From the IMG/VR virus record IMGVR_UViG_3300025732_000017: a stretch of DNA of 64,000 nucleotides; one strand, given 5' to 3'. A program made the position numbers and the translations under genes. The notes under the pieces were generated by a model. That model did no database searches, was not told where the DNA came from, and saw only the letters and a list, made by a program, of their open reading frames with translations. The stretch is from a virus. Below, piece after piece: positions 1-63,127 of the stretch. Within the stretch, counting starts at the first letter, position 1; the number at the start of each line of letters is the position of its first letter.

Positions 1-57
1 ATAGTTCTAGACAAACAGACTAAATCATGTTATGATTGTTTTTTATCATAGGATATC

Positions 58-1293
58 GTGATGTACCAAAAATATACCGTTGATGATGTAAAGAAGTCTT
101 CCGCTCGTAAATTGTTCAATGTGATTTCCACGTTTGCTGGCGGCGGTGGCTCTTCTACTGGATATCGTCTTGCTGGTGGTAATATCATCGCAATCAATGA
201 ATTCGTTGAAGAAGCAATCAAGACATACTCAACGAACTTTCCTGACACCAAGATCATACCCGGCGACATCAAGAAATTGACTGCAAAAGACTTTCTTGAT
301 ACAGCTGGACTCAAGCCTGGCGAACTTGATATTCTTGATGGATCTCCACCGTGTTCAGCATTCTCTGTTGCAGGTAAGCGCGAGAAGGGTTGGGCTGGAC
401 ATGTCACAGATACACGCAAGTCATACTTTGACGATGATGGTAATATCATTGAAGAAGGCGAACTTCTTGTTCAAGAAGGTATCAAGAAGTACTCTGATGG
501 CAAGACCGTAGAAGCCATTGAAGATCTATTTTTGGAATTCATTCGTATCGCAAAAGAGATCAAGCCAAAGGTAATCGTTGCCGAGAACGTCAAAGGCATC
601 ACGTTTGGTGAAGCCAAAAGCAAACTATATGAGTTTGTCAATTCGTTTGAAAAGATTGGATATCAAGTTACATATCAGGTATTGAATGCAGCAGATTTTG
701 GTGTGCCACAAGCAAGAGAGCGTACTCTATTTGTCTGCATACGCGAAGATGTATGTGATGCAATTGGCTTGAACTTCCTCAATATTCACTCTACTGTTTT
801 TCCTAATGCAACATATGCAAAGCACATATCTTTGCGCGAGGCAATTGAAGACATAGAGAATGATCCGAACGAATTGCAGGAACTCTATGACTATGTGCAA
901 AATGGCTTTCAAAAAGATTGGATCACGAAACTACCTTTCAATCCAACAAGACATACAAAGCCATCGGACAAGGAATTTCGCGATTGGAATCCCAAGGCAT
1001 CATGCTTCAACATGATTCGCCCATGTCCAGATCTTCCGTCTCCAACTTTGACTCAGCGCGGACAACAGAAGTCCGTATCTGGCGTGTTTCACTATGCCGA
1101 GAATAGAAAGTTCACGATCAAGGAATTGAAGCGTATCATGAGTCTACCCGAAGACTTTGTTCTTACAGGCACGTTTGATCAACAGGCTGAGAGAATTGGA
1201 CGCATGGTTGCACCAAAGATGATGGCTGCTCTTGCAGGTAGCATCTATGAAAATGTTTTGAAGCCATATAATGATAGCCAAGTTACTAAGTGA
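58..1293 (+). CDS. C5 cytosine DNA methyltransferase homolog, probably a carboxymethyltransferase (CmoX-like)
   Basis: Motif I FAGGGG, motif IV GSPPC, motif VI ENV, motif VIII QARER. Motif X reads GRMV instead of GN(A/S)V. Clustered with cmoA. Confidence 0.9.
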   Translation: MMYQKYTVDDVKKSSARKLFNVISTFAGGGGSSTGYRLAGGNIIAINEFVEEAIKTYSTNFPDTKIIPGDIKKLTAKDFLDTAGLKPGELDILDGSPPCSAFSVAGKREKGWAGHVTDTRKSYFDDDGNIIEEGELLVQEGIKKYSDGKTVEAIEDLFLEFIRIAKEIKPKVIVAENVKGITFGEAKSKLYEFVNSFEKIGYQVTYQVLNAADFGVPQARERTLFVCIREDVCDAIGLNFLNIHSTVFPNATYAKHISLREAIEDIENDPNELQELYDYVQNGFQKDWITKLPFNPTRHTKPSDKEFRDWNPKASCFNMIRPCPDLPSPTLTQRGQQKSVSGVFHYAENRKFTIKELKRIMSLPEDFVLTGTFDQQAERIGRMVAPKMMAALAGSIYENVLKPYNDSQVTK

Positions 1294-2062
1294 AGAAATA
1301 GAAAAAGCATCAAACGATATCAACGTCGCTGTACTTTTGTCTGGCGGCGTTGATAGCATTTCTGTGGCATTAGCAGCACATCGTGTTGGTAAGAAGATTA
1401 CTGCATACACGTTTCATCTAAAAGACCAGCCGACATATGATGCAAGTAAAGCACAAGAAATAAGTAAGATCATGGGTTGGTCGTGCAAGACGATTGAAAT
1501 TCCTGTTGACAATGTTATACGGGATTTCATTCGCCTTCGTCGTGAAGTAGATTGTCAGAAGAAGACACACTATGAATGCTGCTTTCCTTTTCTATATGTC
1601 TATCCGCAAATAGAAGAGAAAGAAGTGCTTAGTGGATGGGCTGCCGATGGTTACTATGGCGTATCCAAGAAAGCCAATCTACACTACAAGCATACGATGG
1701 AAAAGTTCAACGAATTTCGTGAAGATTATTTTCTGCTTGATCACTGTGCTGGCTATCTTTGGCACAAGAGGATTGCTGATATGCACAACAAGATCTTTAT
1801 CACACCATATCTAACCGAGCCAGTAAAACAGTTTTTTTGGACCAAAGACTGGTATGAATTGAATCAGCCATTTCAGAAACACCATGTAGTAGAAGCATTT
1901 GATGAATTTTCTAGATTTGGTGCCGTAAAGAAACACATCAATCTGCAATTGGGCTCAGGTGTTGACAAACTGTTTGAATCTGTTATAATACCTGACAAGA
2001 CGATCAACTATCGTAATAGAAAACGCATCATGGATATTTGCAAGGATTGGAGAAATAGATGA
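1271..2062 (+). CDS. Asparagine synthetase-like ATP-dependent amide ligase (synthetase domain only)
   Basis: PP-loop LLSGGVDS and LSGWAADGYYG (cf. AsnB LSGEGADELFGGY). At 263 aa it has no N-terminal Ntn glutaminase domain. Confidence 0.8.
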   Translation: MIAKLLSEEIEKASNDINVAVLLSGGVDSISVALAAHRVGKKITAYTFHLKDQPTYDASKAQEISKIMGWSCKTIEIPVDNVIRDFIRLRREVDCQKKTHYECCFPFLYVYPQIEEKEVLSGWAADGYYGVSKKANLHYKHTMEKFNEFREDYFLLDHCAGYLWHKRIADMHNKIFITPYLTEPVKQFFWTKDWYELNQPFQKHHVVEAFDEFSRFGAVKKHINLQLGSGVDKLFESVIIPDKTINYRNRKRIMDICKDWRNR

Positions 2063-2745
2063 CACAAAAATTTACATTTGCCCAGCGCGAAGAGGGTTTT
2101 GACAATCACATTAGCCAGTCCATTCGCGGATACAACGACTTGATTGGTGATGTCATCAATCTCTCGCAGTATTTTGTAGAGAACGATACTGTCGTCTATG
2201 ATATCGGCTGTTCAACTGGCAAGATGCTTCGTGCAATGATTGGTCAGAACGAGAAAATTGCACCTCGTGCCAATTATGTAGGAATTGAGATTGAAGAAGA
2301 TTTCTTCAAGTTCTTTGATGAGAATGTTCAGAGTAATTTGGAGTTCATTCGGAATGATGTGCGTGATGTAAGTTTTGCTGTCAATACATCTTTGATCACT
2401 TCTATTTTCACTCTTCAGTTCATGCCCAGACAAGATCGTCAGGATGTCATCAATCAAATCTATAACTGTTTGATTCCCGGTGGGGCGTTCATCTTTGCCG
2501 AGAAGACGATTGGCAACAATCCGATGATTCATGAGATGCGTACATTCACCTACTATGATTTCAAGAAACTCAGTTTCACCTATGACGATATCATGACGAA
2601 GGAAAAGAAACTGCGTTCCATGTTGAAGTCCAATAGTCGTCAGGAATTGATTGAAATGTGTGAGATTGCTGGATTCAATCCCAATTCAATTGATTCGTTC
2701 TGGCAAAACTTTGCGTTTACTGGATTCATTGCAATCAAGAACTGA
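2059..2745 (+). CDS. cmoA: Carboxy-S-adenosyl-L-methionine synthase
   Basis: FDNHISQSIRGY, VYDIGCSTG, FTLQFM, LIPGGAFIFAEK and the C-terminal FTGFIAIK follow the CmoA pattern. Confidence 0.85.
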   Translation: MTQKFTFAQREEGFDNHISQSIRGYNDLIGDVINLSQYFVENDTVVYDIGCSTGKMLRAMIGQNEKIAPRANYVGIEIEEDFFKFFDENVQSNLEFIRNDVRDVSFAVNTSLITSIFTLQFMPRQDRQDVINQIYNCLIPGGAFIFAEKTIGNNPMIHEMRTFTYYDFKKLSFTYDDIMTKEKKLRSMLKSNSRQELIEMCEIAGFNPNSIDSFWQNFAFTGFIAIKN

Positions 2746-2813
2746 TTGGGAATTCCAATATACATATGTGGTAGATGCATAGCTGCTATGCATTGGGAAA
2801 ACAAAGATTGTCC

Positions 2814-2842
2814 TTGTTTCCAAGAAACGATCAGAGTATACT
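2814..2842 (+). promoter_or_regulatory. Possible sigma70-type early promoter
   Basis: TTGTTT-N17-TATACT just upstream of ATG 2849. Confidence 0.45.
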
Positions 2843-2848
2843 GACCAC

Positions 2849-5107
2849 ATGATCGAGAAAAAGACACCCACCATTCACCGGGAAGCCAAGTCACAGCTTG
2901 CGCGTCTCATGGCCAACGAGAACCTCACGGTCGAGCATCGTGCAGTTCGTACAGCGTCCTTCGACACGAATAATCGTGTTCTGACGCTTCCAATCTGGAC
3001 TGACATGACTGGCGATATCTATGATACGCTGGTTGGTCACGAGGTTGGACATGCGCTGGATACTCCAGCGGGTGTCGATGCCATTCTTTCCGCAATCAAG
3101 GCGATTGACGCCAACAACATGCATGGCGCCAAGATGTTCCTCAATGTGGTTGAGGATGCTCGCATTGAAAAGATGGTGCGTCGTCGTTATCCTGGTATGC
3201 GTCGTTCCTTCTCTCTCGGCTACAAGCAGCTGTTGGATCGGAACTTCTTTGGCACGATTGGTCGTGACCTGAAGACGTACAAGCTGATTGACCGCGTCAA
3301 TCTGTACTTCAAGCTGGGTTCGGCTGCGATCATTGACTTCTCTCCCAAGGAGATGGAGTTGGTTCGCATGGTTGACAACAGCGAATCCTTTGAGGACGTT
3401 GTCGCCGCAGCCAAGGCGCTCTATCAATATGCCAAGGATCATAAGGAAGACCAGCCTGATCAGGACGGCGATCAGGACGAAGACTATGACATGTATCCGG
3501 ATGACGACGGAAACTATTACATGGAGAGCGAGTCTTCTGACGAAAATGACGAGGAGGATGAGTCTGACGACGAGACTGGTTCTCCTTCCGATCGGGACGA
3601 TGAGGACGACGAGTCCATGTCCAAGTCCGAGGCTGAAGATGGTGAGGATGGGTCCGATGATGAGGACTCAGATTCTGAGGATGCCTCTGACTCTGAGGAT
3701 GAGCCGATTGATGATGTAGGCACTTCGGAAAACAATCCGACTTCCGAGACTCAGGAGTCTTGGGAAAACCAGAAGGACAAGCTGCTCTCTGGTGCGGTTC
3801 GCGGTTACCTTTACTGCAACATTCCCGAGATTGATGGTCATAATTGGATTGTGCCTTACAAGCAGATCCATTATGGAAATGGTAAGACTGGCGAGGGGCG
3901 CATCGACGGCCTGTCTACGGTTGTTCAAGCGGAAGGCTGGAATGGTCTTCGTGGTCCGAACGAGGCCGAGCGTTTTGCCATGCTCAACAAGTTCAAGAGC
4001 GAAAATGCACCCATCATTTCCTTCATGGTGAAGGAGTTTGAAATGCGTAAGGCTGCTGAGCAGTATGCTCGTCAGTCTATCGCCAAGACTGGCGTGATCA
4101 ACACCAACAAACTCCATACCTACAAGTACAATGACGATATCTTCCGTCGCATCACCAATGTGCCGACTGGCAAGAATCATGGTCTTGTTCTTATTCTGGA
4201 TTGGTCTGGTTCCATGGGTCAGCAGATTACGGGCACCATTGAGCAGCTTCTGAACATGGCACTCTTCTGCCGTCGTGTCCAGATTCCGTTTGAGGTGTTT
4301 GCATTCAGCGATGGTTATCACCCGCATCCTGAAGGGGCAAGTAATTTCAAGTATGATAATGGCGATATGATGATCACCTATGGACTCTCGCTTCTTCAGC
4401 TTCTGTCCTCTACCATGAAGCCGAAGGAACTCAATGATGCCATGGGCAATCTTCTCGCTCTTGGAGAAAACTTCAGGCCGGGTAATCGCAATACTCGTCC
4501 CATGGGGTACTTCCATCTCAATGGAACTCCGCTTGATGGTGCGTTGCTTTGCCTTCCGAGCATCGTGAATGCTTTCCGCAAGCGTAACAAGCTGCAGATC
4601 GTCAATACGATCATCCTTACCGATGGTGAGAATTCCTATAGTCCCGAGATCAATGACAAGGAATATGCCCGTTGGGGTAATAAGGTTCTTGTGGTTCGCG
4701 ACAAGGTGACCAAGGCTGAGTATACCTGTTCTATGCATGGTGGTGAAGAACTTACCAAGATTCTCCTCAAGAACCTTGAGGATCGTACCAATGCAAACGT
4801 CATTGGTTACTATCTGGTCAGTGGATCTTCTCGTACCCTGAGGCAGGCTATTAGTCCGTATTTTCCTGACGATATTGAGAATGCGTTCAATAAGTTCAAT
4901 GAAAAGAGGTACGTGGAGATCACCAGTAGGGGTTACACCTACTACTATGTGATCAAGGGTAACAATCTTCAGATTGAAACTGAGGAGCTGGATATCGGTC
5001 GTGCAACTTCTGCCAAGGCTATTGCCAAGGCATTTGGAAAGTACTCCAAGAACAAGTTGGACAATCGTGTCATGCTTTCCAGGTTCATTGAAAAGATTTC
5101 GGCTTGA
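2849..5107 (+). CDS. CobT-like protein: HExxH metallopeptidase domain, acidic linker, VWA domain
   Basis: HEVGH near the N-terminus, a long D/E/S-rich linker, MIDAS DWSGSM and LTDGE. Adjacent to an AAA ATPase. Confidence 0.8.
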   Translation: MIEKKTPTIHREAKSQLARLMANENLTVEHRAVRTASFDTNNRVLTLPIWTDMTGDIYDTLVGHEVGHALDTPAGVDAILSAIKAIDANNMHGAKMFLNVVEDARIEKMVRRRYPGMRRSFSLGYKQLLDRNFFGTIGRDLKTYKLIDRVNLYFKLGSAAIIDFSPKEMELVRMVDNSESFEDVVAAAKALYQYAKDHKEDQPDQDGDQDEDYDMYPDDDGNYYMESESSDENDEEDESDDETGSPSDRDDEDDESMSKSEAEDGEDGSDDEDSDSEDASDSEDEPIDDVGTSENNPTSETQESWENQKDKLLSGAVRGYLYCNIPEIDGHNWIVPYKQIHYGNGKTGEGRIDGLSTVVQAEGWNGLRGPNEAERFAMLNKFKSENAPIISFMVKEFEMRKAAEQYARQSIAKTGVINTNKLHTYKYNDDIFRRITNVPTGKNHGLVLILDWSGSMGQQITGTIEQLLNMALFCRRVQIPFEVFAFSDGYHPHPEGASNFKYDNGDMMITYGLSLLQLLSSTMKPKELNDAMGNLLALGENFRPGNRNTRPMGYFHLNGTPLDGALLCLPSIVNAFRKRNKLQIVNTIILTDGENSYSPEINDKEYARWGNKVLVVRDKVTKAEYTCSMHGGEELTKILLKNLEDRTNANVIGYYLVSGSSRTLRQAISPYFPDDIENAFNKFNEKRYVEITSRGYTYYYVIKGNNLQIETEELDIGRATSAKAIAKAFGKYSKNKLDNRVMLSRFIEKISA

Positions 5108-5157: not shown

Positions 5158-6369
5158 ATGTCTCTGACCAACAAGCAGATTGCCTTCATCAAGCTGGCAA
5201 ACGCAAACGGTTTTACCAGCACGATTTCCCGCAAGGACGCAAAGGCGCTTTGCAAGGCTAATGACTTCAAGTGGCCGCGATGGATTGCGATTGACGACCA
5301 GTATCGTCACGCTCGCGGCGTCTATAGGCTTCCCAAGATTGATAGTGAGGTAAGTGTGCCTAAGGTTTCTCGGATTGATACGCCCGTGCAGCAGGCTCCT
5401 GCACCGACCATGAATCTTCAGGTTCTTGGTACGAATGTGGCGGAATCGCTCATTCCAATGCCCAATCGCAAGTATGTGCCATTTGGCAACTTTGCCGATG
5501 TTGAGGCTATCATTTCTTCCACTCTATTCTATCCGATCTATGTCACGGGTCTGTCTGGCAACGGCAAGACCATGATGATTGAGCAGGTCTGTGCCAAGGC
5601 TCGGCGCGAGATGGTTCGCGTCAATATCACGGCCGAGACTGACGAAGACGATCTTATCGGCGGCTTCCGTCTGATTGATGGTCAGACCGTGTGGCATAAT
5701 GGTCCTGTGGTCATGGCCATGGAGCGTGGTGCTGTACTGCTCCTGGACGAGGTTGACCTTGGTTCAATTAAGCTGATGTGCCTTCAGCCCGTGCTTGAGG
5801 GTAAGCCGATCTTCATCAAAAAGATCAACAAGCTGGTTCAGCCTGCCAAGGGCTTCACGGTTGTTGCTACTGCAAACACCAAGGGTAAGGGTTCAGACGA
5901 TGGTCGCTTCATTGGCACCAACGTGATGAACGAGGCTTTCCTTGAGCGTTTTTCCATCACCCTTGAGCAGGAGTATCCGCCTGCTGTAACCGAGAAGAAG
6001 ATCCTTCTCAACATCCTGGATCGCTCTGCGGACAATGACAAGGAGTTTGCCGAGCTGCTTATCAAGTGGGCAGAGGCAATTCGCCGCACCTATTATGATG
6101 GTGGTGTGACCGAGATCATTTCCACTCGTCGTTTGGTGCATATCTGCGAGGCGTATAACATCTTCTCCAAGGATCGCAAGAAGGCGATTCAGCTCTGTCT
6201 CAATCGGTTTGATGCGGACACCAAGAATTCGTTCATGGATCTGTATACCAAGATTGATGCTGAGGTCAATCCTCCTGTGGTTGCTGCGCCTGGCACCGAC
6301 AGCCCGACTGTTCAGGCTGAGATGTCGCTTGAGGACAAGATCAAGGCGGCTGACGAAATTCCCTTCTGA
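5158..6369 (+). CDS. CobS/MoxR-family AAA+ ATPase
   Basis: Walker A GLSGNGKT, Walker B LLLDEVD, VATANTKG, AFLERF, ISTRRL. Typical T4-like phage cobS homolog. Confidence 0.88.
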   Translation: MSLTNKQIAFIKLANANGFTSTISRKDAKALCKANDFKWPRWIAIDDQYRHARGVYRLPKIDSEVSVPKVSRIDTPVQQAPAPTMNLQVLGTNVAESLIPMPNRKYVPFGNFADVEAIISSTLFYPIYVTGLSGNGKTMMIEQVCAKARREMVRVNITAETDEDDLIGGFRLIDGQTVWHNGPVVMAMERGAVLLLDEVDLGSIKLMCLQPVLEGKPIFIKKINKLVQPAKGFTVVATANTKGKGSDDGRFIGTNVMNEAFLERFSITLEQEYPPAVTEKKILLNILDRSADNDKEFAELLIKWAEAIRRTYYDGGVTEIISTRRLVHICEAYNIFSKDRKKAIQLCLNRFDADTKNSFMDLYTKIDAEVNPPVVAAPGTDSPTVQAEMSLEDKIKAADEIPF

Positions 6370-13939: not shown

Positions 13940-14263
13940 ATGAGATATATTGGATACTCAGTCTCTCGTTGTATACGCGACATAGTAAAGAAGCGTGTCA
14001 ATATCTACGCAGTAGAAGTTATCATTGGTCGTACCTCAATAGAAAATGAGCAGCATGTAGCAGAAGTTGCTCGCGGATATCACAGTCTACCAAAGGGCGA
14101 TTATCGTTCTTGGAATGATTTGGATTATGATGCATGTCATGGAGTTCTTCTGGAACTGTATCGTGATGGTAAGTTACATCAGCCAAGATTGTTTGGTAAG
14201 TATCCAATTCGCATGGACAATCATTGGGGTGTGATTGCTCCGTTTCCCATGAGCGCATTCTGA
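13940..14263 (+). CDS. Hypothetical protein
   Basis: GGAG RBS and coupling to the next gene through TGATG. No motif recognised. Confidence 0.55.
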   Translation: MRYIGYSVSRCIRDIVKKRVNIYAVEVIIGRTSIENEQHVAEVARGYHSLPKGDYRSWNDLDYDACHGVLLELYRDGKLHQPRLFGKYPIRMDNHWGVIAPFPMSAF

Positions 14264-14988
14264 TGAGAGCCGTTGTTATAATTCCAACAACAGGCGACAA
14301 AAAAGTCCTAGAAGCAATCAAGAGCGTCGAAAATCAAACTTATGCTGATACGAGTTATCTCGTCGTTGTTGATGGTAACAAGTTCAAGCATAAGTTTGAT
14401 GATCTGTTTGTAAATTCTGATCCATACATGCCACCTAAAGATGTCGTGTATCTAAAGCACAACACAGGTGCTGATGGATTCTACGGTCATCGCATATATG
14501 CAGGATTCTCGCATCTGGTGAATGAAGATATTGTTCTCTTTCTTGATCAGGACAATTGGTTTGAGCCAGATCATGTTGAAAAACTTATAAGCATAATTCA
14601 AACTGAAAATCTTACATGGGCTCATAGCCTTCGCAACATCTATGACAAAGACAACAATTTTCTTTGTCGTGATGATTGCGAAAGTTTAGGTAAATGGCCT
14701 GTGTGGAATGGTCTAGATAATTTTCATGTAGACACATCTGCATATGCATTTCGTCGTGAATTCATATCTCAAGTCGCATCGCTTTGGCACTCTGGTTATG
14801 CTGGTGATCGTCGCTTTTTCAATATGGTTAGAACAATACCAAATGCGCCATATGGCACAAGTGGTGCATACACATTGAATTATAGACTTGATGGTAATCC
14901 AAATTCAGCGTCACCCGACTTCTTTCTTCATGGCAATAGAGTCATGGAGCAAAAATATTATGGAAAATATCCTTGGAGAAAAGCATGA
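14263..14988 (+). CDS. Glycosyltransferase family 2-like
   Basis: VIIPTTG, YLVVVDG, LFLDQDNWF, VDTS, GDRRF. Confidence 0.8.
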   Translation: MRAVVIIPTTGDKKVLEAIKSVENQTYADTSYLVVVDGNKFKHKFDDLFVNSDPYMPPKDVVYLKHNTGADGFYGHRIYAGFSHLVNEDIVLFLDQDNWFEPDHVEKLISIIQTENLTWAHSLRNIYDKDNNFLCRDDCESLGKWPVWNGLDNFHVDTSAYAFRREFISQVASLWHSGYAGDRRFFNMVRTIPNAPYGTSGAYTLNYRLDGNPNSASPDFFLHGNRVMEQKYYGKYPWRKA

Positions 14989-15563
14989 GTAACATAAAAA
15001 TTGAATATATGCAACAGTATGGCTCTGGTAAGATATTTGTAGAGACTGGAACATATCTTGGAGATACCGTTGAACTTGCATTGAATGCAGGATTTGAGTA
15101 TGTACATACTATTGAAGTGGATCAAGGTATGTATGATAAGTGTCACGCACGATTCAAGGATAATTCTAAGGTCAAGTTGTGGCTTGGTGATTCGGTAGAT
15201 ATCATTCCACAGATTGTTGATGAATTGATAGAACCAGCAACATTTTGGCTTGATGCTCATGCAAGTGGTCCACTTCAAGGTGGTCGTTATGCACCATGTC
15301 CACTTGTGCTGGAACTTGAAGCAATCTATGGAAAGAAGAAGTTGCGTTTTACTGAACGTGGCTCTGAAATGTTTCGCGAAAAGTCTTCAATAGATACACA
15401 CACGATCATGATTGATGATCGGCGTCTATTGGGTTCTGCTGAATGGGGATATGTGCAAGAGAAGCAGATCATGGATCTTCTATTTGCAATCAATCCAAAC
15501 TATAAGATTCATTATCTTGATGGTCATCAAGCCAATGATATCATTTGTGCTACGGTGAGATAA
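14985..15563 (+). CDS. Class I SAM-dependent methyltransferase-like protein
   Basis: FVETGTYLGDT, HTIE, GDS, FWLDAH, IMIDD.R. Confidence 0.65.
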   Translation: MSNIKIEYMQQYGSGKIFVETGTYLGDTVELALNAGFEYVHTIEVDQGMYDKCHARFKDNSKVKLWLGDSVDIIPQIVDELIEPATFWLDAHASGPLQGGRYAPCPLVLELEAIYGKKKLRFTERGSEMFREKSSIDTHTIMIDDRRLLGSAEWGYVQEKQIMDLLFAINPNYKIHYLDGHQANDIICATVR

Positions 15564-15564
15564 C

Positions 15565-16428
15565 ATGAAAGATCTTATTTTAGGATGCATCACAAATTAC
15601 ACTTTTGACAAGATTGCAAACTGGGTCAATTCAATTGAACGTTCGGGCTTTACTGGACACAAAGTTGTCATTGCATATAATGTTGGATTTGACATTGTAG
15701 ATGAACTAACAAAAAGAAACTTTACTGTAGTCACTTTCAATCGTGATGACGCGAATAGACGATTTACATATCGTGAAAATTTCAATATTGTCGTTGATCG
15801 TTTCTATCATTCTTGGAAAGTATTGAGTGATATTGAAAACGAGGTGCGATATGTGATAGCCACGGATGTTAGAGATGTTGTTTTTCAAACAAATCCTACA
15901 GAATGGTTAGATAGTCTTTTGCCCTCAGAATTTAATACGTTAATTGCATCAACCGAAGGGATTAGATATAAGAATGAAGTTTGGGGAAACAACAATATGA
16001 AGTTGAGTTTTCCTTTCGTTCATGAATACATGATGAATAGGGGCATTTATAATGCGGGTGTCATGGCAGGAAAAGTGTCTGTAATCAAGGATTTGTTCTT
16101 GAATATATTCATGATCTGTGCTAATATGCCTCATACTATTCCTGGTGGAGGTGGACCAGATCAAGCTGCATATAACGTATTGCTAACAATGAATCAGTAT
16201 GAAAATATCACACGATTTACTATTGCCAAAGATGCATGGGCAGCACAACTTGGAACAGTTGCTGATCCAAACAAGATAAATCAGTACAGACCATACTTGA
16301 CAGACTTTGAGCCAGTCATTCAAAACGGCGAAGTCTTCAATAACGAAGGTCGTAAGTACTGCATTGTTCATCAATACGATAGAGTGCCGAATCTTCTTCC
16401 ACTAATTAATTCAAAATATGGAACATGA
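15565..16428 (+). CDS. Nucleotide-diphospho-sugar transferase-like (GT-A) protein
   Basis: VIATDVRDVVFQ.NP, NAGVMAG, DQAAYN, IVHQYDR. Confidence 0.6.
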   Translation: MKDLILGCITNYTFDKIANWVNSIERSGFTGHKVVIAYNVGFDIVDELTKRNFTVVTFNRDDANRRFTYRENFNIVVDRFYHSWKVLSDIENEVRYVIATDVRDVVFQTNPTEWLDSLLPSEFNTLIASTEGIRYKNEVWGNNNMKLSFPFVHEYMMNRGIYNAGVMAGKVSVIKDLFLNIFMICANMPHTIPGGGGPDQAAYNVLLTMNQYENITRFTIAKDAWAAQLGTVADPNKINQYRPYLTDFEPVIQNGEVFNNEGRKYCIVHQYDRVPNLLPLINSKYGT

Positions 16429-16429
16429 C

Positions 16430-17065
16430 ATGTCAGATGTAATTAGAATCAATACTGCAACAAACGCTTTTCAAAAAGTTGAAAGACCATTAACGATTGC
16501 CGAATATAAAGAGCAAGGAAAATGGCCATTTGATTTTATTTCTGGAAAAGGTCTTGTTAGTGTAATCAACAATCTATCTGTAAGTCTAGATAGAAATGTT
16601 GTTGGACTAGAAATTGGTATTTGTAAAGGTGAAAACATTGTTCACTTCTTTGAACAGACAAATAGAATCGACAAGATTCATTGTATTGATCCATATCTAC
16701 CATACATGGATTGGGTTGGACCAGTAACGCAAGAGGATATGGATCTATGGTATGATATCACGATGAAGAATTTTGCTCCGTACATGGACAAGATCGTGAT
16801 GTACAAGGACACATCAGACAATTGCGTAAGCAAGTTTAAAGATGGACAATTTGACTACATCTTCATAGATGGCGATCATTCATATGAAGGTGTTATTAAA
16901 GACTTATATAATTATTATGACAAGTTAAGAGTTGGTGGTATTTTTTCTGGTCATGATATTAATCTTCCAGACGTTCAAAGAGCATTGAAAGAGTTTAGAT
17001 CAATAAAGGGTATTGAAAAAGAAATGAAGTTTACTGATGTAAACGTTTGGTACTGGGTAAAGTAA
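16430..17065 (+). CDS. Class I SAM methyltransferase (Methyltransf_24-like)
   Basis: GLEIGICKGE, CIDPY, FDYIFIDGDHSYE, GGIFSGHD. Confidence 0.8.
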   Translation: MSDVIRINTATNAFQKVERPLTIAEYKEQGKWPFDFISGKGLVSVINNLSVSLDRNVVGLEIGICKGENIVHFFEQTNRIDKIHCIDPYLPYMDWVGPVTQEDMDLWYDITMKNFAPYMDKIVMYKDTSDNCVSKFKDGQFDYIFIDGDHSYEGVIKDLYNYYDKLRVGGIFSGHDINLPDVQRALKEFRSIKGIEKEMKFTDVNVWYWVK

Positions 17066-17934
17066 TGCAAAAGAAACCATTGAAACTTGGATTTGTTGAC
17101 GTATGCACATCCGAGTTTTATGAGACGATTCTATCTCAAAGATATGACTTGACGATAGATAATGAAAATCCAGATTTTCTTTTCTTTGGTGATGAAAACT
17201 TTGGAACAAAAAATCTCCAATACTCAAAAGATAAGTGCATAAAGATTTTTCATACTGGCGAAAATCGTAGACCAGAAAATTATGATTGTCATTATGCCAC
17301 GACTTTTGATCATAATCCTAATCCATGGCATTATAGATTACCTGGTTATGCTTTGGTTCCATTCTTCTATAAGAAATTTGAGTTTACACATATTTTTAAT
17401 GCACACAACATCAAGCATCTAAAAACAAAGTTTTGTGTGTTTATACATCGCAATCCAAACAACAATGTGCGAAATGCTGTATTTCATGAACTATGCAAGT
17501 ATAAGAAAGTTGATAGTGCCGGACCATTATTTAATAATATTGGACATGTAATTAGTCCAGACTATGATGCAAAACTTGATTTTATCAAGAACTACAAGTT
17601 TGTTCTTTCATTTGAGAATAGTCCACATCCAGGATATGTGACTGAAAAGATAATGGATGGATTCTATGTCAATTCGGTTCCAATCTACTGGGGTTCATCT
17701 ACGATAGATCTAGACTTCAATGAAGCATCTTTCATCAATGCGGGAAATTTTGATTCAATGGAATCATTCATCAATTATGTAATCAAGATTGATAACGATG
17801 ATACACTATACAACAACATGATTTCACAACCAAAACTAAAGCATGGTCTTCCCCCTTCGTGCATGATTTATGATAATTTCTTGAATTGGTTTGATGCTAT
17901 TGTATACAATAAATTATATCCGAGAGTGAAATGA
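17065..17934 (+). CDS. Alpha-1,3-fucosyltransferase-like (GT10)
   Basis: KFCVFIHRN, YKKVDSAG, YKFVLSFENS..PGYVTEKI, PIYWG. Confidence 0.85.
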   Translation: MQKKPLKLGFVDVCTSEFYETILSQRYDLTIDNENPDFLFFGDENFGTKNLQYSKDKCIKIFHTGENRRPENYDCHYATTFDHNPNPWHYRLPGYALVPFFYKKFEFTHIFNAHNIKHLKTKFCVFIHRNPNNNVRNAVFHELCKYKKVDSAGPLFNNIGHVISPDYDAKLDFIKNYKFVLSFENSPHPGYVTEKIMDGFYVNSVPIYWGSSTIDLDFNEASFINAGNFDSMESFINYVIKIDNDDTLYNNMISQPKLKHGLPPSCMIYDNFLNWFDAIVYNKLYPRVK

Positions 17935-18908
17935 AAAAGCACAAGAAGATCATTGTATGGGGTGCAAAATATGAAACGGGACACACTCATGCATTTACAC
18001 ATGCAGCTTTTGTCAAAGGCGCACAATACCTAAATGAAGAAGTCTATTGGCTTGACGATACAGACAATGTTGATCCTTCATTCTTTGACGATTCGCTAAT
18101 CGTATCAGAACATTGGATAGCAACAACACACCCAAGAAGTCATCGTCTACCACTAAGAAAGTCATCAACATATGTGATGAATTACTTGGGCAACAAGAAA
18201 GGCACCGACAATCCGGGCGCTTCATATTATCTTGGTAGAGTTGGAAGAATCATAGATTTTAGATTTGCAAACAATTGGTCTGACAAATATTGGGAATACA
18301 AATACGAACCTGAAAAGTATATCCCAATAAATGATGGTGTTTCTCATCTAGAAAGAGGATCTGAATACGATAATTTCTATAGCATGTGGGCTACAGATCT
18401 CATGCCAAACGAGATCAATTTTGATGATTGCTTGACACCATGGAAAGAACCAAAGCACGTTTTCTTTTCTGGTACAATTCGTGAAGACAATCGTGATCAA
18501 TTTGAGCCATTTATTCGTGCATGTTCAGAAAATAAAATGAATTTTTACTTCAATGATGTGTGGCGTCAAGTTCTAACGATTGAATCCGTTAAGAGAGCAT
18601 CACTTGATGCGTTTCTTGCTCTTGAACTTCGTCCAAAGTTTCATGTTGATATTGGATACAAGTCATGTCGCGCATTCAAGGTCATTAGTTATGGGCAACT
18701 TGGCATGACAAACTCTCGCGCTGTTTATGATTTCTTTGATCAGGAAATTGCATTTCATGAAGATCCGTATCAGCTATTCCATGTAGCATCAGAGATGCGA
18801 AACAATCCAAAGACAAAAGATCTTGTTCTCAATCAAATGAAGAAGGTAAAAGAGAAGCATACATATGCTAGTAGGATGAAGGATATTATTACTGCTTGTG
18901 AAATGTGA
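17931..18908 (+). CDS. GT-B/CgeB-like glycosyltransferase
   Basis: C-terminal R.FK.ISYG....TN and KHTYASRM patterns; lies within the glyco island. Confidence 0.5.
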   Translation: MKKHKKIIVWGAKYETGHTHAFTHAAFVKGAQYLNEEVYWLDDTDNVDPSFFDDSLIVSEHWIATTHPRSHRLPLRKSSTYVMNYLGNKKGTDNPGASYYLGRVGRIIDFRFANNWSDKYWEYKYEPEKYIPINDGVSHLERGSEYDNFYSMWATDLMPNEINFDDCLTPWKEPKHVFFSGTIREDNRDQFEPFIRACSENKMNFYFNDVWRQVLTIESVKRASLDAFLALELRPKFHVDIGYKSCRAFKVISYGQLGMTNSRAVYDFFDQEIAFHEDPYQLFHVASEMRNNPKTKDLVLNQMKKVKEKHTYASRMKDIITACEM

Positions 18909-18916
18909 GGTTTATT

Positions 18917-19858
18917 ATGGGCACCATTCTGGTTACTGGCGGCGCTGGTTATATTGGTAGTATTTTCGTAGAACAATTATTGAAAATAGGCGGTCATAGA
19001 GTTTGTGTTCTTGACAATCTATATTACAATAATCAATCATCTCTAAATCACTTGATGCATGATCCATATTTGGAAGTCAGACGCGGAGATGTTCGCAAGC
19101 CAAGTGACATAGATCCACTGCTCAAGAAAGCAGACATTATCGTCCCACTTGCCGCTCTCGTTGGCGCACCAATATGCAATAGAGATCCAGTTGCAGCATC
19201 TTCCACAAATAAAGACGCAATATTTGAAATGCTGGACAAGATTAGTCCAGAACAAACTATCATCATGCCTACGACAAATAGTGCATATGGTTCTGGTGAC
19301 AAGGATAATTTTTGTACGGAAGAGTCGCCTCTGAATCCAATCTCACTTTATGCCAGAGACAAGGTTGAAGTAGAAAAGAGGTTGATGCAGCATAAGAATG
19401 CAATTAGCCTAAGGCTTGCTACCGTGTTTGGCATGTCGCCTCGTATGCGTCTTGATTTGCTTGTAAATGATTTCACATATCGTGCTGTGCATGATGGATT
19501 TGTCGTTCTATTTGAAAGTCACTTCAAGAGAAACTATATTCATGTTCGCGATGTATCAAATGCATTTATTCATTGCATGAATAACTTTGAAAAGATGAAT
19601 GGTCAAATCTACAATGTCGGTCTTTCAAATGCAAATATATCCAAACTTGAATTGTGCAAGATGATCAAGAGTCTTGTTCCAAAGTTTACTTTCATGGAAG
19701 CACCATATGGACAAGATCCAGATCAACGCAACTACATAGTATCAAACGCTAAGATTGAAGCAACTGGATTCAAGCCAGAATACTATCTACAGGATGGTCT
19801 TGTTGAATTGATCAAGGGCTATGAACTTATTCGTAATACTCGTCATGGAAATGTGTGA
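18917..19858 (+). CDS. NAD-dependent sugar epimerase/dehydratase (extended SDR)
   Basis: VTGGAGYIGS, LAALVG, YARDK (YxxxK), LRLATVFG. Confidence 0.88.
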   Translation: MGTILVTGGAGYIGSIFVEQLLKIGGHRVCVLDNLYYNNQSSLNHLMHDPYLEVRRGDVRKPSDIDPLLKKADIIVPLAALVGAPICNRDPVAASSTNKDAIFEMLDKISPEQTIIMPTTNSAYGSGDKDNFCTEESPLNPISLYARDKVEVEKRLMQHKNAISLRLATVFGMSPRMRLDLLVNDFTYRAVHDGFVVLFESHFKRNYIHVRDVSNAFIHCMNNFEKMNGQIYNVGLSNANISKLELCKMIKSLVPKFTFMEAPYGQDPDQRNYIVSNAKIEATGFKPEYYLQDGLVELIKGYELIRNTRHGNV

Positions 19859-20841
19859 TGATCATAATAAGAACTCCGTATAGAATTTCATTCTTTGGTG
19901 GCGGCACGGATTATCCTGCTTGGTATAGGGAGCATGGTGGCTGTGTCTTGTCCACCTCCATAAACAAGTGCAGTTTTCTTGTTCTTAGAAAGTTGCCGGA
20001 AATATTCGACTATAGATACAAGATTCGTTACTTTGCTGATGAAACAACAAAGTGCGTGGACGACATCCAGATACCAGTCATTCGCGAGGCAATCAAATAC
20101 ATGAATTTTGAAGACGGATTGGACATCACACATCATGGTGATCTTCCAAATCGCACAGGCATCGGATCAAGTTCAAGTTTTACTGTATCACTAATTCACG
20201 GATTGGCTACTCTCAAGAATGAACAAATTACCAAGAGAGATCTTGCTCGCAAGTCGATCTATCTGGAGCAAAATGTTCTTCGTGAAGCTGTTGGATCGCA
20301 AGATCAAGTTGCCGCTGCATTTGGCGGTTTCAATAGAATTGAATTTGGCGGATATACGGATTTTACTTGCTACTCGTTGCATCTCAAGAAGGATATTCTA
20401 CAGGAACTTGAGTCGTGGGTTCAATTATTCTTTACAGAGAAACTTCGCAATTCATTTGATATCGCCGAGAAGAAGATAACAAATATTAGTTCAAAAAAAG
20501 TTGATCTAAACATCATGAAGGACTTGACACATGAAGCAGAGCGTGTATTATATGAACATAGAATATATGACTTTGCAAATCTTCTCAATGATCAATGGAA
20601 ACTAAAGAAAAGCATGGAGTCATCAATCACAAACACCGAGATTGATGATATCTACGACAAAGGCATTCAGGCTGGTGCTGTAGGAGGAAAGTTGTTGGGT
20701 GCTGGTGGTGGTGGATTCATTCTATTCTTGACACCGCCACATATGCAAAAGAAAGTTGCTGAGAAGTTGAAACTCAGACAAGTACCATTGAACTTTGACT
20801 ATCTTGGAAGTCAATTGATTTATCACGATTATCAGAATTGA
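19858..20841 (+). CDS. hddA: GHMP sugar kinase, HddA-like (heptose-7-phosphate kinase)
   Basis: RTPYRISFFGGGTD, GIGSSSSF, GSQDQ, GGKLLGAGGGGF. Confidence 0.8.
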   Translation: MIIIRTPYRISFFGGGTDYPAWYREHGGCVLSTSINKCSFLVLRKLPEIFDYRYKIRYFADETTKCVDDIQIPVIREAIKYMNFEDGLDITHHGDLPNRTGIGSSSSFTVSLIHGLATLKNEQITKRDLARKSIYLEQNVLREAVGSQDQVAAAFGGFNRIEFGGYTDFTCYSLHLKKDILQELESWVQLFFTEKLRNSFDIAEKKITNISSKKVDLNIMKDLTHEAERVLYEHRIYDFANLLNDQWKLKKSMESSITNTEIDDIYDKGIQAGAVGGKLLGAGGGGFILFLTPPHMQKKVAEKLKLRQVPLNFDYLGSQLIYHDYQN

Positions 20842-20848
20842 GGTTATC

Positions 20849-21799
20849 ATGAAAAAGATTTATGTTGCTGGGCATAGCGGTCTCGTAGGGTCTGCTATTG
20901 TTAGAATGTTGCGTGAGCATGGTGAAACAAACATTGTCACACGCACATCAAAAGAACTTGACTTGACAAATCCTATTGCAGTTGAAGAATTCTTCACGCA
21001 AGAAAAGCCAGATGAAGTCTATCTTGCTGCTGCAAAAGTTGGTGGTATCGTAGCAAATAATACTTTTCCTGCGGACATGATTAACATCAATCTACGCATA
21101 CAAACGAATGTAATTGATACAGCATATCGTCATGGCGTGCAAAAGTTGTTGTTCTTGGGATCAACGTGCATCTATCCTCGCGAATGCCCACAACCGATCA
21201 AGGAAGAATATCTACTCACAGGTCATCTTGAAATTACAAATGATGCATATGCAATCGCAAAGATTGCAGGAATAAAGATGTGTCAAGCATATAATCGTCA
21301 ACATGGAACTGATTATCGTGCTGTAATGCCGAGCAATGTATACGGACCTGGCGATAATTTTCATCCAGAAAACAATCATCTCGCGGCTGGGCTAATGCGT
21401 AAGTTTCATGAAGCAAAGTTCAACGAAACAAAAGCGGTTTTATGGGGAACTGGAACACCTCGTCGCGAATTTCTATATTGCGATGATCTTGCTCGTGGAT
21501 GCATTCATGTATTGAATGCTCCAAAAGATGAGTTTGCAAAGACGGGTGGATTCGTCAATCTTGGTCCGGGATACGATCTAGAGATTCGCGATTTTGCTGA
21601 GATACTTGCAAAAGTCGTTGGATATAATGACGACTTCTTGTATGATTCATCTCGTCCTGACGGTACTATGCGTAAGCTGACGGACGTATCAAAAGCACAT
21701 GCACTTGGCTGGAGACCTCAGATTTCTCTTGAAGATGGACTAAGAAGAATGTATAATTGGTACGTTGATGGTCTCAAGAATGGAACAGTAAGAACATGA
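20849..21799 (+). CDS. fcl: GDP-L-fucose synthase family epimerase/reductase
   Basis: VAGHSGLVGSA, AAAKVGGI, LGSTCIYP, YAIAKIAG, WGTGTPRREF, PDGTMRK. Confidence 0.92.
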   Translation: MKKIYVAGHSGLVGSAIVRMLREHGETNIVTRTSKELDLTNPIAVEEFFTQEKPDEVYLAAAKVGGIVANNTFPADMININLRIQTNVIDTAYRHGVQKLLFLGSTCIYPRECPQPIKEEYLLTGHLEITNDAYAIAKIAGIKMCQAYNRQHGTDYRAVMPSNVYGPGDNFHPENNHLAAGLMRKFHEAKFNETKAVLWGTGTPRREFLYCDDLARGCIHVLNAPKDEFAKTGGFVNLGPGYDLEIRDFAEILAKVVGYNDDFLYDSSRPDGTMRKLTDVSKAHALGWRPQISLEDGLRRMYNWYVDGLKNGTVRT

Positions 21800-22767
21800 A
21801 GTATGTTGTGACTGGTGGAGCAGGTTATATCGGTAGTCATGTAGTTGATGAACTATTAAGACGTGGTCATGAAGTTGTGGCAATTGATAATCTATCCACT
21901 GGTCAAATGAGATTTATTGAGCATAATCTAGATAACAAGAACTTTACATTTGTTCGGGGTGATATCAATGGGAATCTTTCTTTTCTTGGCGATACTGACG
22001 CGGTATACCATTTTGCTGCGAATGCTGACATAAGAAAGGGGTTCAAGAATCCAAATCTTGACTTCAAGAACAACATTGAAGGAACAATGAATCTATTGCA
22101 ATCCATGAACTACCATGGAGTCAAGAGGATGATATTTGCATCAACTTCGGCAGTTCTTGGAGAAGTTGATAGAGAAAGATTGCCTGCTTCCGAGAGAGTT
22201 GCCATGCCAGAGCAAACCTCGTTGTATGGCGCATCAAAGTTGGCGGGTGAAGGTTTGATTTCTGCATTTTGCGAAGGCTTTGATTTTGAAGCATATGTAT
22301 TTCGTTTCGTGACTGTTCTTGGTCCAAGATATCCACACGGCTTTGCATTTGACTTCGTCAAGAAACTCTTGAATAATCCATATTATCTAGAAGTTCTTGG
22401 TGATGGCACAGGAATAAAGAGTTCCATTCATGTGTCAGATGTTGTTTCGGCCGTGACTATGATTGGTGAAGATATCAGACCAGCAAGAGACAAGAAGCGA
22501 CGATATGAAGTATTCAATATTGGTAATGATGTCACATATCGAGTCTCTGATGCAGCACAATGGGTTGCGAATGCGATGGGCGTGACTCCAGACATCGTAT
22601 ATGGAAATACGTTAAAGGGTTGGCCTGGTGATATTCCTTATATTCATCTGGATACATCAAAGATCAAATTGTATGGATGGAAGTCAAATTATACACCAAA
22701 GCAAGCCATACATGAAACTGTTGATTGGCTTCTTCACAATCGCTGGATATATGAGGTTCGTCAATGA
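21796..22767 (+). CDS. NAD-dependent epimerase/dehydratase (GalE-like SDR)
   Basis: VTGGAGYIGS, HFAANAD, FASTS, YGASKLAGE. Confidence 0.88.
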   Translation: MKYVVTGGAGYIGSHVVDELLRRGHEVVAIDNLSTGQMRFIEHNLDNKNFTFVRGDINGNLSFLGDTDAVYHFAANADIRKGFKNPNLDFKNNIEGTMNLLQSMNYHGVKRMIFASTSAVLGEVDRERLPASERVAMPEQTSLYGASKLAGEGLISAFCEGFDFEAYVFRFVTVLGPRYPHGFAFDFVKKLLNNPYYLEVLGDGTGIKSSIHVSDVVSAVTMIGEDIRPARDKKRRYEVFNIGNDVTYRVSDAAQWVANAMGVTPDIVYGNTLKGWPGDIPYIHLDTSKIKLYGWKSNYTPKQAIHETVDWLLHNRWIYEVRQ

Positions 22768-23204
22768 GCACGATTGTAATCGTGAGTGGCGGATTTGATC
22801 CGATTCACTCTGGTCATATCGAATACTTCAAGTCCGCAAGAATGTTTGGCATGAGATTGTATGTTGGTGTCAACTCTGATAATTGGTTAACACGCAAGAA
22901 GGGTAACTTCTTCATGCCATTTGAAGAGCGTTTGAAGATTGTTCAAAGCATACGATACGTTGATCAAGCAATGGGCTTCAATGACGACGACGATAGTGCT
23001 GCAAGTTTGATTAGAAACATACGCAGAGATAATCCTGATGCATTGCTAATCTTTGCCAATGGTGGTGATAGAATCGGCGGCACTCGTCAAAGTGAACTTG
23101 AAATGCAGGCGGCAGATGACAAGATTATATTTGCAGTCGGCGTCGGTGGAATCAAGAAGATAAATTCTTCTTCCGATATTCTCAAAAGATGGAAAACTTC
23201 ATGA
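22764..23204 (+). CDS. Cytidylyltransferase-family nucleotidyltransferase (RfaE/TagD-like)
   Basis: SGGFDPIHSGH (HxGH), VGVNSD.WL.RKKG, FANGGDR. Confidence 0.85.
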   Translation: MSTIVIVSGGFDPIHSGHIEYFKSARMFGMRLYVGVNSDNWLTRKKGNFFMPFEERLKIVQSIRYVDQAMGFNDDDDSAASLIRNIRRDNPDALLIFANGGDRIGGTRQSELEMQAADDKIIFAVGVGGIKKINSSSDILKRWKTS

Positions 23205-23938
23205 AAAAGGCAATAGTATTTGTTCCTACAGGAAATAATCCTGATACATTTGACGATAGATATGACAAGAATGCACATTGGCGATCAAAGCATTTAGAGA
23301 GAACATACGAGATAGTTGGATCTATTTACAAGGAGGGATTTATTCCAGATCCTAGTTCATACGATTATATCTATGATATTCGTGGTCACAAGTGGCAAAT
23401 GATTCGTGAAGTATTCAAGCAATTTGATTATTCAAAGTATGATTATGTTTGTTGTATTGATGACGATCAAATTACGGATGTATGGAATCTAAACAAAGGT
23501 CTTGAACTGGCTCGTCGTTTTGATTTTCGCATATGGCAATTGTCAATGGCAGAAGGGTCTGACCTATTTTATAATATCTTGAGACAAGATAAATCATGTG
23601 ATTTTTCTGAGACAAATTTTGTCGAGATTGGTGTTCCTTGTTTTCGTGTAGATGTCTTTGAAAAGATCCTTCGTGTTCTAGACAAATGGGATTTTACCAT
23701 AGGCTATGGTCTGGACAAGGCTTTTTGTGATATAGCACAAACAATGGCAAATGTTGTTCATTGTGCATCAATATATCATCCACCTCGTCATAGATATTAT
23801 GACAAGACAAATGCAATGAGAGAACATGATCAATTTCTGTATAGCGATTATCCGAGAATATGCAGAGAATTATTCAATCGTGAACCATTAGTGATAGATA
23901 GACAATATACGACAAACAAATATAAAATTGCGGAGTGA
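23201..23938 (+). CDS. DUF707-like putative glycosyltransferase
   Basis: YDYVCCIDDD, WQLSM..GS, TNFVEIGVPCF, GYGLD resemble the DUF707 pattern. Confidence 0.55.
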   Translation: MKKAIVFVPTGNNPDTFDDRYDKNAHWRSKHLERTYEIVGSIYKEGFIPDPSSYDYIYDIRGHKWQMIREVFKQFDYSKYDYVCCIDDDQITDVWNLNKGLELARRFDFRIWQLSMAEGSDLFYNILRQDKSCDFSETNFVEIGVPCFRVDVFEKILRVLDKWDFTIGYGLDKAFCDIAQTMANVVHCASIYHPPRHRYYDKTNAMREHDQFLYSDYPRICRELFNREPLVIDRQYTTNKYKIAE

Positions 23939-23943
23939 TAAAA

Positions 23944-24492
23944 ATGATTATTGATTTAGGTGCTGGTCCATGGCCAAAGGCTGATGCAACAGTATGTGTG
24001 GATGTCAACAAGTGGAGAGACAACTATATCATACACGATCTATCATCTTTACCGTATCCATTTGAATCAAATGTAGCAGATAAGATCTACTTTGGCGATG
24101 TGATTGAACATCTCTCAAAGTTCATTGTTGATGATGTTCTAAAAGAGATTCATCGTGTTCTAAAACCAGGAGGATTTCTAGAGATCACAACACCCGACAT
24201 TGAATGGGTTGCTGAGAGAATCTACAAGAAAGACTGGCATATCATGGCAAATGTAGATTGGCTCAACAAGAACAAGGATCCATTTGAAGATGCTATGGAA
24301 GTAATTTATGCTGGATGGCTTCATGAGACGGATCACAAGATTCCTGGCATGGGTCATATCAATGGTTTCAATCAAGAAAAATTGACAAAATATTTGACTC
24401 GTGCTGGATTCAAGAGTACAATGAGAGTTCCTGATATGAGAAATCCCGAACCTGCTCGTGGTTCTGTATTGAAGATGTTGGCCTATAAATGA
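23944..24492 (+). CDS. Class I SAM methyltransferase (type 11-like)
   Basis: IDLGAG, HDL...PYPF, DVIEHL, RVLKPGG.LEITTPD. Confidence 0.8.
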   Translation: MIIDLGAGPWPKADATVCVDVNKWRDNYIIHDLSSLPYPFESNVADKIYFGDVIEHLSKFIVDDVLKEIHRVLKPGGFLEITTPDIEWVAERIYKKDWHIMANVDWLNKNKDPFEDAMEVIYAGWLHETDHKIPGMGHINGFNQEKLTKYLTRAGFKSTMRVPDMRNPEPARGSVLKMLAYK

Positions 24493-25433
24493 GAAAACTT
24501 CTTGTTACTGGTGGTGCTGGATTTATTGGCATCAACTTCATAAAGCATATACTTGATGTTGACAAAGTTGACATTGTTGTTGCTGATAGATTCACATATG
24601 CAAGTAATCCAGAAGAACTCATCAATAATATGAAGATTGACACCCATTGCATGGACTTATCGGACGCGACATCTGTTGAAAGTCTATTCAAGATGCATGA
24701 GATTACCCATGTCGTGCATTTTGCCGCAGAGAGCCACGTTGATAGATCAATCAAGGACTGTCAACCTTTCATACAATCAAATATCATTGCAACAGTCAAT
24801 CTACTAAATGAAGCAATGAAATATAAAGTTCAAAAGTTCGTTCACATATCTACGGATGAAGTTTTTGGCGAAATTGCGATACCAGGTAAATTCAATGAAC
24901 TTTCAAATATATGTCCAAGAAATCCATACTCTGCTAGCAAGGCTTCAGCCGAACATTTTGTAGAAGCATATGGTAATACATATGGATTTCCATATACTAT
25001 AATCAATTCATCAAACAATTATGGTCCATGGCAGTATCCCGAAAAGTTTATTCCTCTAGCGATTAATCGTATTCTAAAAAAGCAAAAAGTTCCGGTATAT
25101 GGAACTGGTAGTCAGATTCGCGATTGGATCTTTGTCAAGGATGCAGCTGAAGCAATTCGTCGTGTACTTCATCATGGGAACACACATGATAGATATTGCA
25201 TCGGTGGCGAACAAGAAATAAGAAACATTGATCTTCTTCGCATGATAATTCAAAAAATGAACGTAGATGAAAATCTAATAGAGTACGTTACTGATCGTCC
25301 TGGGCATGATGCAAGATATGCCACATCAATACTCAAGATTAAAAGAGAGTTGAAGTGGGTGCCAGAGTACAATCTATCTGATGGATTGAATGAAACGATA
25401 GAGTGGATAAAGAAACATGAAAATAGGATTTAA
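24489..25433 (+). CDS. rfbB: dTDP-glucose 4,6-dehydratase
   Basis: TGGAGFIG, FAAESHVDRSI, HISTDEVFG, PYSASKA, DRPGHD.RY. Confidence 0.92.
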   Translation: MRKLLVTGGAGFIGINFIKHILDVDKVDIVVADRFTYASNPEELINNMKIDTHCMDLSDATSVESLFKMHEITHVVHFAAESHVDRSIKDCQPFIQSNIIATVNLLNEAMKYKVQKFVHISTDEVFGEIAIPGKFNELSNICPRNPYSASKASAEHFVEAYGNTYGFPYTIINSSNNYGPWQYPEKFIPLAINRILKKQKVPVYGTGSQIRDWIFVKDAAEAIRRVLHHGNTHDRYCIGGEQEIRNIDLLRMIIQKMNVDENLIEYVTDRPGHDARYATSILKIKRELKWVPEYNLSDGLNETIEWIKKHENRI

Positions 25434-63066: not shown

Positions 63067-63127
63067 TGCTGATGGCTCCTCTTTAGCTGTTAGAGTGGTT
63101 GGGGCCTCGGAACCCGCGAACCACATC

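Follow-up and report, generated by a model that had tools for sequence, protein, structure and literature searches.

A predicted cytosine hypermodification cassette of the CmoA-CmoX-CmoY type in an uncultured T4-like phage

The CmoA-CmoX-CmoY system of Synechococcus phage S-B43 was described, with biochemistry and a crystal structure, in December 2025 by Yang et al. (Nat Commun 2025, PMC12783734). In that phage, CmoA generates carboxy-S-adenosylmethionine (carboxy-SAM) from S-adenosylmethionine (SAM) and prephenate with a kcat of 2.33 per second, and SpCmoX (PDB 8YF3), a homologue of the DNA cytosine C5-methyltransferases (C5-MTases), writes 5-carboxymethylcytosine at GC sites after replication (PMC12783734). 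Wild-type SpCmoX accepts only carboxy-SAM, not SAM; its Arg350, which replaces HhaI Asn304, contacts the carboxyl group of carboxy-SAM in the crystal structure, and the Arg-to-Asn mutant is dead and not switched to SAM (PMC12783734). SpCmoY, an asparagine-synthetase-like ATP-dependent ligase, couples glycine to give 5-glycylcarboxymethylcytosine, which was detected in S-B43 virion DNA, where it occupies about 10% of all C and 75% of the GC sites (PMC12783734). Here, we analyzed a three-gene cassette at the beginning of a 64,000-nucleotide stretch of viral DNA (IMG/VR record IMGVR_UViG_3300025732_000017; this whole stretch is hereafter called the window), which an initial annotation, made from the sequence alone, had taken for a carboxy-SAM-based cytosine hypermodification operon. 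That annotation mentioned a similar cluster from a cyanophage; the precedent exists, and the cluster is that of S-B43.

The window cassette shares with the S-B43 system the same three enzyme families (46-51% identity), the Cys of the SPPC motif, the carboxylate-binding Arg, the adenine and ribose contacts, a PP-loop-only ligase without a glutaminase domain, and a tight arrangement of the genes in a T4-like myovirus. It differs in gene order, which is X-Y-A in the window and A-Y-X in S-B43, and in its flanking genes, with peptide deformylase and CobT/CobS in the window as opposed to pyrophosphatase and glutaredoxin in S-B43. Other known enzymes resemble the window CmoX in part. As cited in PMC12783734, a basic residue in place of the motif-X Asn allows the engineered enzyme M.MpeI N374K to use carboxy-SAM and to form 5-carboxymethylcytosine. 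Going by that citation, M.MpeI N374K and the window CmoX are alike in having a basic residue at this position, but the former is an engineered point mutant with a CG target from a SAM-using family, whereas the latter is natural, belongs to the CmoX lineage, and is accompanied by its own cofactor synthase and ligase. M.HaeIII and M.HhaI have their catalytic fold and four motifs (I, IV, VI, and VIII) in common with the window CmoX, but the window protein has Arg in place of their motif-X Asn (HhaI Asn304), and their target recognition domains (TRDs) have no detectable similarity to that of the window CmoX.

The cassette comprises three open reading frames (ORFs) on the plus strand (58-1293, 1271-2062, and 2059-2745), which overlap, as the initial annotation had noted, by 23 nt and 4 nt and are translationally coupled. 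The genes are as follows:

61-1293, plus strand: cmoX, homologue of the DNA cytosine C5-carboxymethyltransferase, 410 residues from the ATG at 61; the ORF opens with a GTG at 58.
1271-2062, plus strand: cmoY, homologue of the ATP-dependent (AMP-forming) amide ligase, 263 residues, with a PP-loop synthetase domain only.
2059-2745, plus strand: cmoA, homologue of the carboxy-SAM synthase, 228 residues.

Translation of cmoX probably starts at the ATG at 61 rather than at the GTG at 58, because this ATG is preceded by an AGGA at a distance of 6 nt, the protein has 410 residues in public gene calls, and alignments with the S-B43 protein begin at 61. CmoX residue numbers in this text are counted from the GTG at 58; counted from the ATG at 61, Arg382 is Arg381. 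Within this operon, the distance from cmoX to the downstream cmoA is 766 nt, and no intrinsic terminator-like sites were found in window positions 1-3000.

Profile searches (Pfam/NCBIfam) placed the three proteins in the families named by the initial annotation: C5-MTase (PF00145), PP-loop Asn_synthase (PF00733), and CmoA (TIGR00740). CmoX matched PF00145 at 5.9e-58, its only Pfam family, and also matched TIGR00675. By phmmer against the PDB, CmoX matched SpCmoX (8YF3) at 1.2e-110, with M.HaeIII as the next match at 9e-26. The pairwise comparison with S-B43 CmoX gave 49% identity (366 bits, 1e-129), a score above the published sequence similarity network (SSN) edge of the SpCmoX cluster (about e-70, roughly 50% identity; PMC12783734). 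At least 96 CmoX relatives were present in IMG/VR, and we examined the best 80, which were 62-95% identical to the window protein. Conservation was assessed in alignments of CmoX (these 80 relatives plus the window, 81 in all), CmoY (63 sequences), and phage CmoA (76 sequences). The following CmoX motifs were located:

343-354, plus strand: SPPC (motif IV) with the catalytic Cys99, residues 96-99, corresponding to S95-C98 (Cys98) of SpCmoX; invariant in 81 of 81 aligned sequences.
583-591, plus strand: ENV (motif VI), residues 176-178; AENVKG is kept in 80 of 81 aligned sequences.
1201-1203, plus strand: codon of Arg382 in motif X, ERIGRMVAP (GRMV), equivalent to SpCmoX Arg350 in a residue-for-residue alignment with 8YF3.

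The PC and ENV motifs and the GRMV form of motif X, all three singled out in the initial annotation, are thus present, with the motif-X Arg at the codon it had given. The motif-X Arg was found in all 80 CmoX sequences covering that column; the window and every such relative have GRMV, and none has the GN[A/S]V that is canonical for SAM-dependent C5-MTases. Similarly, Phe26, Glu48, Phe49, and Asp70 of the window protein, which correspond to SpCmoX Phe25, Glu47, Phe48, and Asp69, the residues touching the adenine and ribose of carboxy-SAM, are identical across the 81 aligned sequences. Every SpCmoX residue named in PMC12783734 for carboxy-SAM binding or catalysis (Phe25, Glu47, Phe48, Asp69, Ser95-Cys98, and Arg350) is therefore identical in the window CmoX.

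These residues bear on the simplest alternative for the cassette, namely an ordinary 5-methylcytosine methyltransferase lying beside an unrelated tRNA-modification CmoA and an asparagine-synthetase-like enzyme, with no carboxymethylation of DNA. Public databases annotate the three proteins in just these terms, as DNA (cytosine-5)-methyltransferase 1, asparagine synthetase B, and tRNA (cmo5U34)-methyltransferase, and the match of CmoX to no Pfam family other than PF00145 fits the same reading. However, the motif-X Asn is replaced by Arg in all the relatives covering the column, wild-type SpCmoX does not use SAM (PMC12783734), no CmoB that could use carboxy-SAM on tRNA was found in the window, and the three genes co-occur across many phage contigs. 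On these four grounds, we rejected the plain methylase, which we regard as extremely unlikely.

CmoA matched TIGR00740 over its full length (6.2e-28) and was 46% identical to S-B43 CmoA (8e-72). Its best PDB matches were E. coli CmoA (4GEK/4IWN) and YecO (1IM8), and hhalign aligned it with E. coli CmoA at a probability of 99.9%. The E. coli cofactor contacts Tyr39, Asp62, Gly64, Ser66, and Phe137 are all five identical in the window CmoA and in the 76 phage CmoA sequences; E. coli Asp89 is Glu in the window, and Asn90 and Asn132 are not conserved, as is also the case for SpCmoA, which lacks both. The window protein thus has the fold and SAM-binding residues of the bacterial CmoA/CmoB pathway for tRNA cmo5U34, although it is only about 28% identical to the E. 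coli enzyme. That pathway includes CmoB, whereas a tblastn search with E. coli CmoB detected none in the 64 kb (the best E value, 0.074, fell on the SAM motif of CmoA; the contigs carrying the cassette reach 197 kb). The lack of CmoB in the 64 kb argues against a tRNA role for carboxy-SAM, whose predicted consumer in the window is a DNA C5-MTase homologue and not a tRNA enzyme.

A sequence that matches the sigma-70 consensus perfectly (TTGACA, 16 nt, TATAAT, and a TG upstream) is present at 1962-1989 on the plus strand, within the 3′ end of cmoY and ∼70 nt before the start of cmoA. The site is kept in the closest relatives (L002-L004, L083, and L084) despite nearby synonymous changes, and it is lost in relatives whose CmoA is ∼77% identical. 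Possibly, it serves as an internal promoter of cmoA. Such a site could allow separate early expression of cmoA, as might be expected if CmoA served mainly to deplete host SAM and thereby weaken SAM-dependent defences, with DNA modification being secondary. This role was raised as an open question in the published discussion (PMC12783734). We consider it very unlikely, given that only the closest relatives have the promoter-like site and that the tight linkage of CmoA and CmoX in nearly all relatives fits a supply of cofactor to CmoX.

CmoY matched PF00733, the PP-loop part of Asn_synthase, at 5.3e-12 over residues 5-150 only, with weaker matches to QueC and NAD-synthase; no glutaminase (GATase) domain was found in it by Pfam/NCBIfam profile search, and it had no sequence match in the PDB. 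It was 51% identical to S-B43 CmoY over its full length (273 bits, 3e-97), a score exceeding the SSN edge of about e-56 by which the glycine/alpha-amino-acid cluster is delimited (threshold from PMC12783734). Its nucleotide-binding motif is the following:

1340-1357, plus strand: PP-loop SGGVDS, residues 24-29; it persists throughout the alignment of 63 CmoY sequences.

At least 97% of these sequences retain S24, and the same is true of G26, D28, and S29, whereas position 25 is Ala in 8 of them. The initial annotation had proposed amidation of the carboxylate by this AsnB-like PP-loop enzyme. Its S-B43 counterpart is indeed an amide-forming ligase, so that part held; the proposal is refined by the lack of a glutaminase domain and by the finding that the S-B43 enzyme adds glycine and not ammonia. 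We lean slightly towards glycine as the amine that the window CmoY would add. CmoY homologues with 29-34% identity also occur in phage records of Erwinia (43), Dickeya (2), Pseudomonas (2), Yersinia (1), and Staphylococcus (1), with those of the Erwinia/Dickeya jumbo phages (H28-H64) exemplified by MZ475896.1, positions 15646-16494. The ligase family thus reaches well beyond aquatic T4-like phages.

Across the 80 IMG/VR loci, CmoA lies beside CmoX in nearly all and CmoY is present in most. The commonest gene order is Y-X-A, and the X-Y-A order of the window is confined to its closest relatives. The linkage therefore survives rearrangement, which supports the view that the three genes form a functional unit. 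In loci L057, L058, L059, L067, L068, and L076, we found CmoX and CmoA, and no CmoY was detected within reach, which covered several kb on both sides of cmoX; in these phages, 5-carboxymethylcytosine may be the end product of the pathway, or another ligase may act.

Taken together, the identities of the three genes, their conserved linkage, and the conservation of individual residues point to a cassette that is very probably an orthologue of the S-B43 CmoA-CmoX-CmoY DNA hypermodification system and that would work by the same general mechanism. By homology to the characterised enzymes, CmoA would convert host SAM and prephenate to carboxy-SAM, and CmoX would flip out cytosines in the double-stranded phage DNA after replication. 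Cys99 would then attack C6 in a covalent mechanism, with Arg382 holding the carboxylate of the cofactor, and the carboxymethyl group of carboxy-SAM would be transferred to C5 to give 5-carboxymethylcytosine. CmoY would adenylate the new carboxylate, after which an amide would be formed, and the modified DNA should resist restriction enzymes. The carboxymethylation of cytosines after replication via carboxy-SAM, as the initial annotation had envisaged it, gains support from its demonstration for the S-B43 proteins, which are 46-51% identical and whose key residues are kept in the window. Within this scheme, we are least certain of GC as the target and of glycine as the amine.

Several observations weigh against the assignment of the cassette to this system or against parts of it. 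Every activity is predicted from homology, at 46-51% identity. For CmoA, the scores fall below the NCBIfam equivalog cut-offs (98.1 against 193.3 bits for TIGR00740; 79.5 against 285 for NF011995). In addition, E. coli CmoA binds the carboxylate of the cofactor through a salt bridge with Arg199 (PMC3663124), a residue that has no Arg counterpart at its column in the window:

2602-2616, plus strand: CmoA Glu182 to Arg186, with Glu182 at the E. coli Arg199 column; HMMER, MAFFT, and hhalign agree on the register.

Arg186, which follows Glu182 by four residues (one helical turn), is invariant in the 76 phage CmoA sequences, among them that of the active S-B43 enzyme. Since the biochemically active SpCmoA has the same Glu/Arg arrangement, this seems to be a trait of the lineage and not a defect. 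With Arg199 and Glu203 in E. coli set against Glu and Arg in phage CmoA, the difference looks like an i/i+4 charge swap.

The other points of this kind concern the target sequence, and two of them arise from regions in which the window CmoX differs from the S-B43 protein:

778-1092, plus strand: TRD, residues 241-345, 31% identical to SpCmoX compared with 53-64% in the catalytic blocks.
397-480, plus strand: insertion of 28 residues after the catalytic-loop region, residues 114-141; S-B43 CmoX has 9 residues there.

The insertion has 28-30 residues in 61 of the 81 aligned CmoX sequences, including the window, and 2-9 residues in the other 20. Because the TRD is only 31% identical to that of SpCmoX, the GC target is uncertain, and with the insertion lying beside the catalytic loop, GC specificity may not carry over to the window enzyme. 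In a search of the PDB with the TRD alone, however, 8YF3 was the sole methyltransferase match (8.7e-7), and the two domains are collinear apart from two short indels, which makes a GC target plausible. If GC were the target, 22% of the window cytosines would be substrates (5,782 sites on both strands). The third point is that the palindromes AGCT, GGCC, and GCATGC, all of which contain GC, remain depleted in the window (positions 1-64000; AGCT observed/expected 0.50; GCATGC 0 observed against 11.5 expected), which would be unexpected if every GC site were protected. This weakly suggests that GC protection is incomplete or that the target is narrower. We regard the question of whether GC is the full target of the window CmoX as evenly balanced.

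Over the same positions, TCGA was observed 31 times against 210 expected (z = -12), and TTAA, ACGT, and AGCT each occurred at about half of the expected frequency. The avoidance of these short palindromes suggests heavy type II restriction pressure, which cytosine modification would not fully relieve.

The same pathway could also lead to a different end product, if the CmoX site were not plain GC or if the amine used by CmoY were not glycine; the final base would then differ from 5-glycylcarboxymethylcytosine. The divergence of the TRD relative to the rest of CmoX, the insertion, and the persisting avoidance of AGCT are all compatible with such an outcome, as is the 51% identity of CmoY to SpCmoY, and Yang et al. 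themselves reported ligase clusters with different pocket residues and stated that other CmoX specificities remain to be determined (PMC12783734). On the other hand, the collinearity of the TRD with that of SpCmoX, its only methyltransferase match in the PDB, argues for a retained specificity, and a two-base target requires few contacts, which are easily retained. We therefore see a different end product as a tentative possibility. The more specific proposal that the diverged TRD and the insertion signal a non-GC target, or that CmoY couples a different amino acid, seems to us rather unlikely; if it were true, an abundant group of freshwater T4-like phages would carry a not-yet-described cytosine adduct. 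Under the favoured assignment to the S-B43 system, the cassette is a further member of a published system and reveals no new chemistry.

We also considered the phage in which the cassette resides. The exact window proteins were found on contigs of up to 197 kb, on which the 5′ side of the cassette carries genes for gp23, a tail-tube protein, UvsY, UvsW, gp55, gp47, gp46, peptide deformylase, and a small ORF, and the 3′ side carries genes for a CobT-like protein, a CobS-like protein, a deoxynucleoside monophosphate kinase, and gp45. Elsewhere in the window are genes for gp44, gp43, UvsX, gp41, primase, thymidylate synthase, and ribonucleotide reductase; no tRNA genes were found in the 64 kb. 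The window gp43 is only about 50% identical to cyanomyovirus gp43, no cultured close relative was present in the phage collection, where DNA searches gave only short matches of 72-75%, and the stretch occurs in sequencing runs of several studies on freshwater, lake, estuary, lagoon, and aquaculture metagenomes. These three lines of evidence indicate a T4-like myovirus, uncultured and widespread in fresh or brackish water, of a lineage different from that of S-B43. This lineage is probably already among the 5,615 candidate CmoX sequences of the published survey drawing on IMG/VR (PMC12783734). The analysis thus places the published carboxymethylcytosine pathway in a widespread uncultured lineage distant from the proven cyanophage, and it defines a CmoX subgroup, marked by the 28-residue insertion and the diverged TRD, whose specificity is open to test.

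Some further genes of the window were noted. Downstream of the cassette, the CobT-like protein (2849-5107, plus strand) matched phrog_459 at 6e-202 and no Pfam family, and has a central acidic stretch of roughly 100 residues rich in Asp, Glu, and Ser; its gene is followed by that of the CobS-like AAA ATPase (5158-6369). A sugar-nucleotide and glycosyltransferase island (14224-27605, plus strand) lies inside the T4-like replication module and encodes a glycosyltransferase (GT) of family GT2, a GT10-type fucosyltransferase, a GT1-like protein, four NAD-dependent epimerase/dehydratases, and a GHMP kinase, together with a further nucleotide-sugar epimerase (25893-26675). We considered this island as an extension of the DNA modification pathway and rejected the idea, as ∼11 kb of replication genes lie between it and the cassette and nothing was found that links the two. 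A homing-endonuclease-like ORF (phrog_314; 62305-63126, minus strand) overlaps, on the opposite strand, the 3′ end of the ribonucleotide reductase gene (60458-62377). Finally, a protein of 898 residues (48044-50740, plus strand) has an N-terminal cytidylyltransferase-like domain (phrog_3041/395) and shares phrog_455 with a protein of 400 residues (37848-39050, plus strand).

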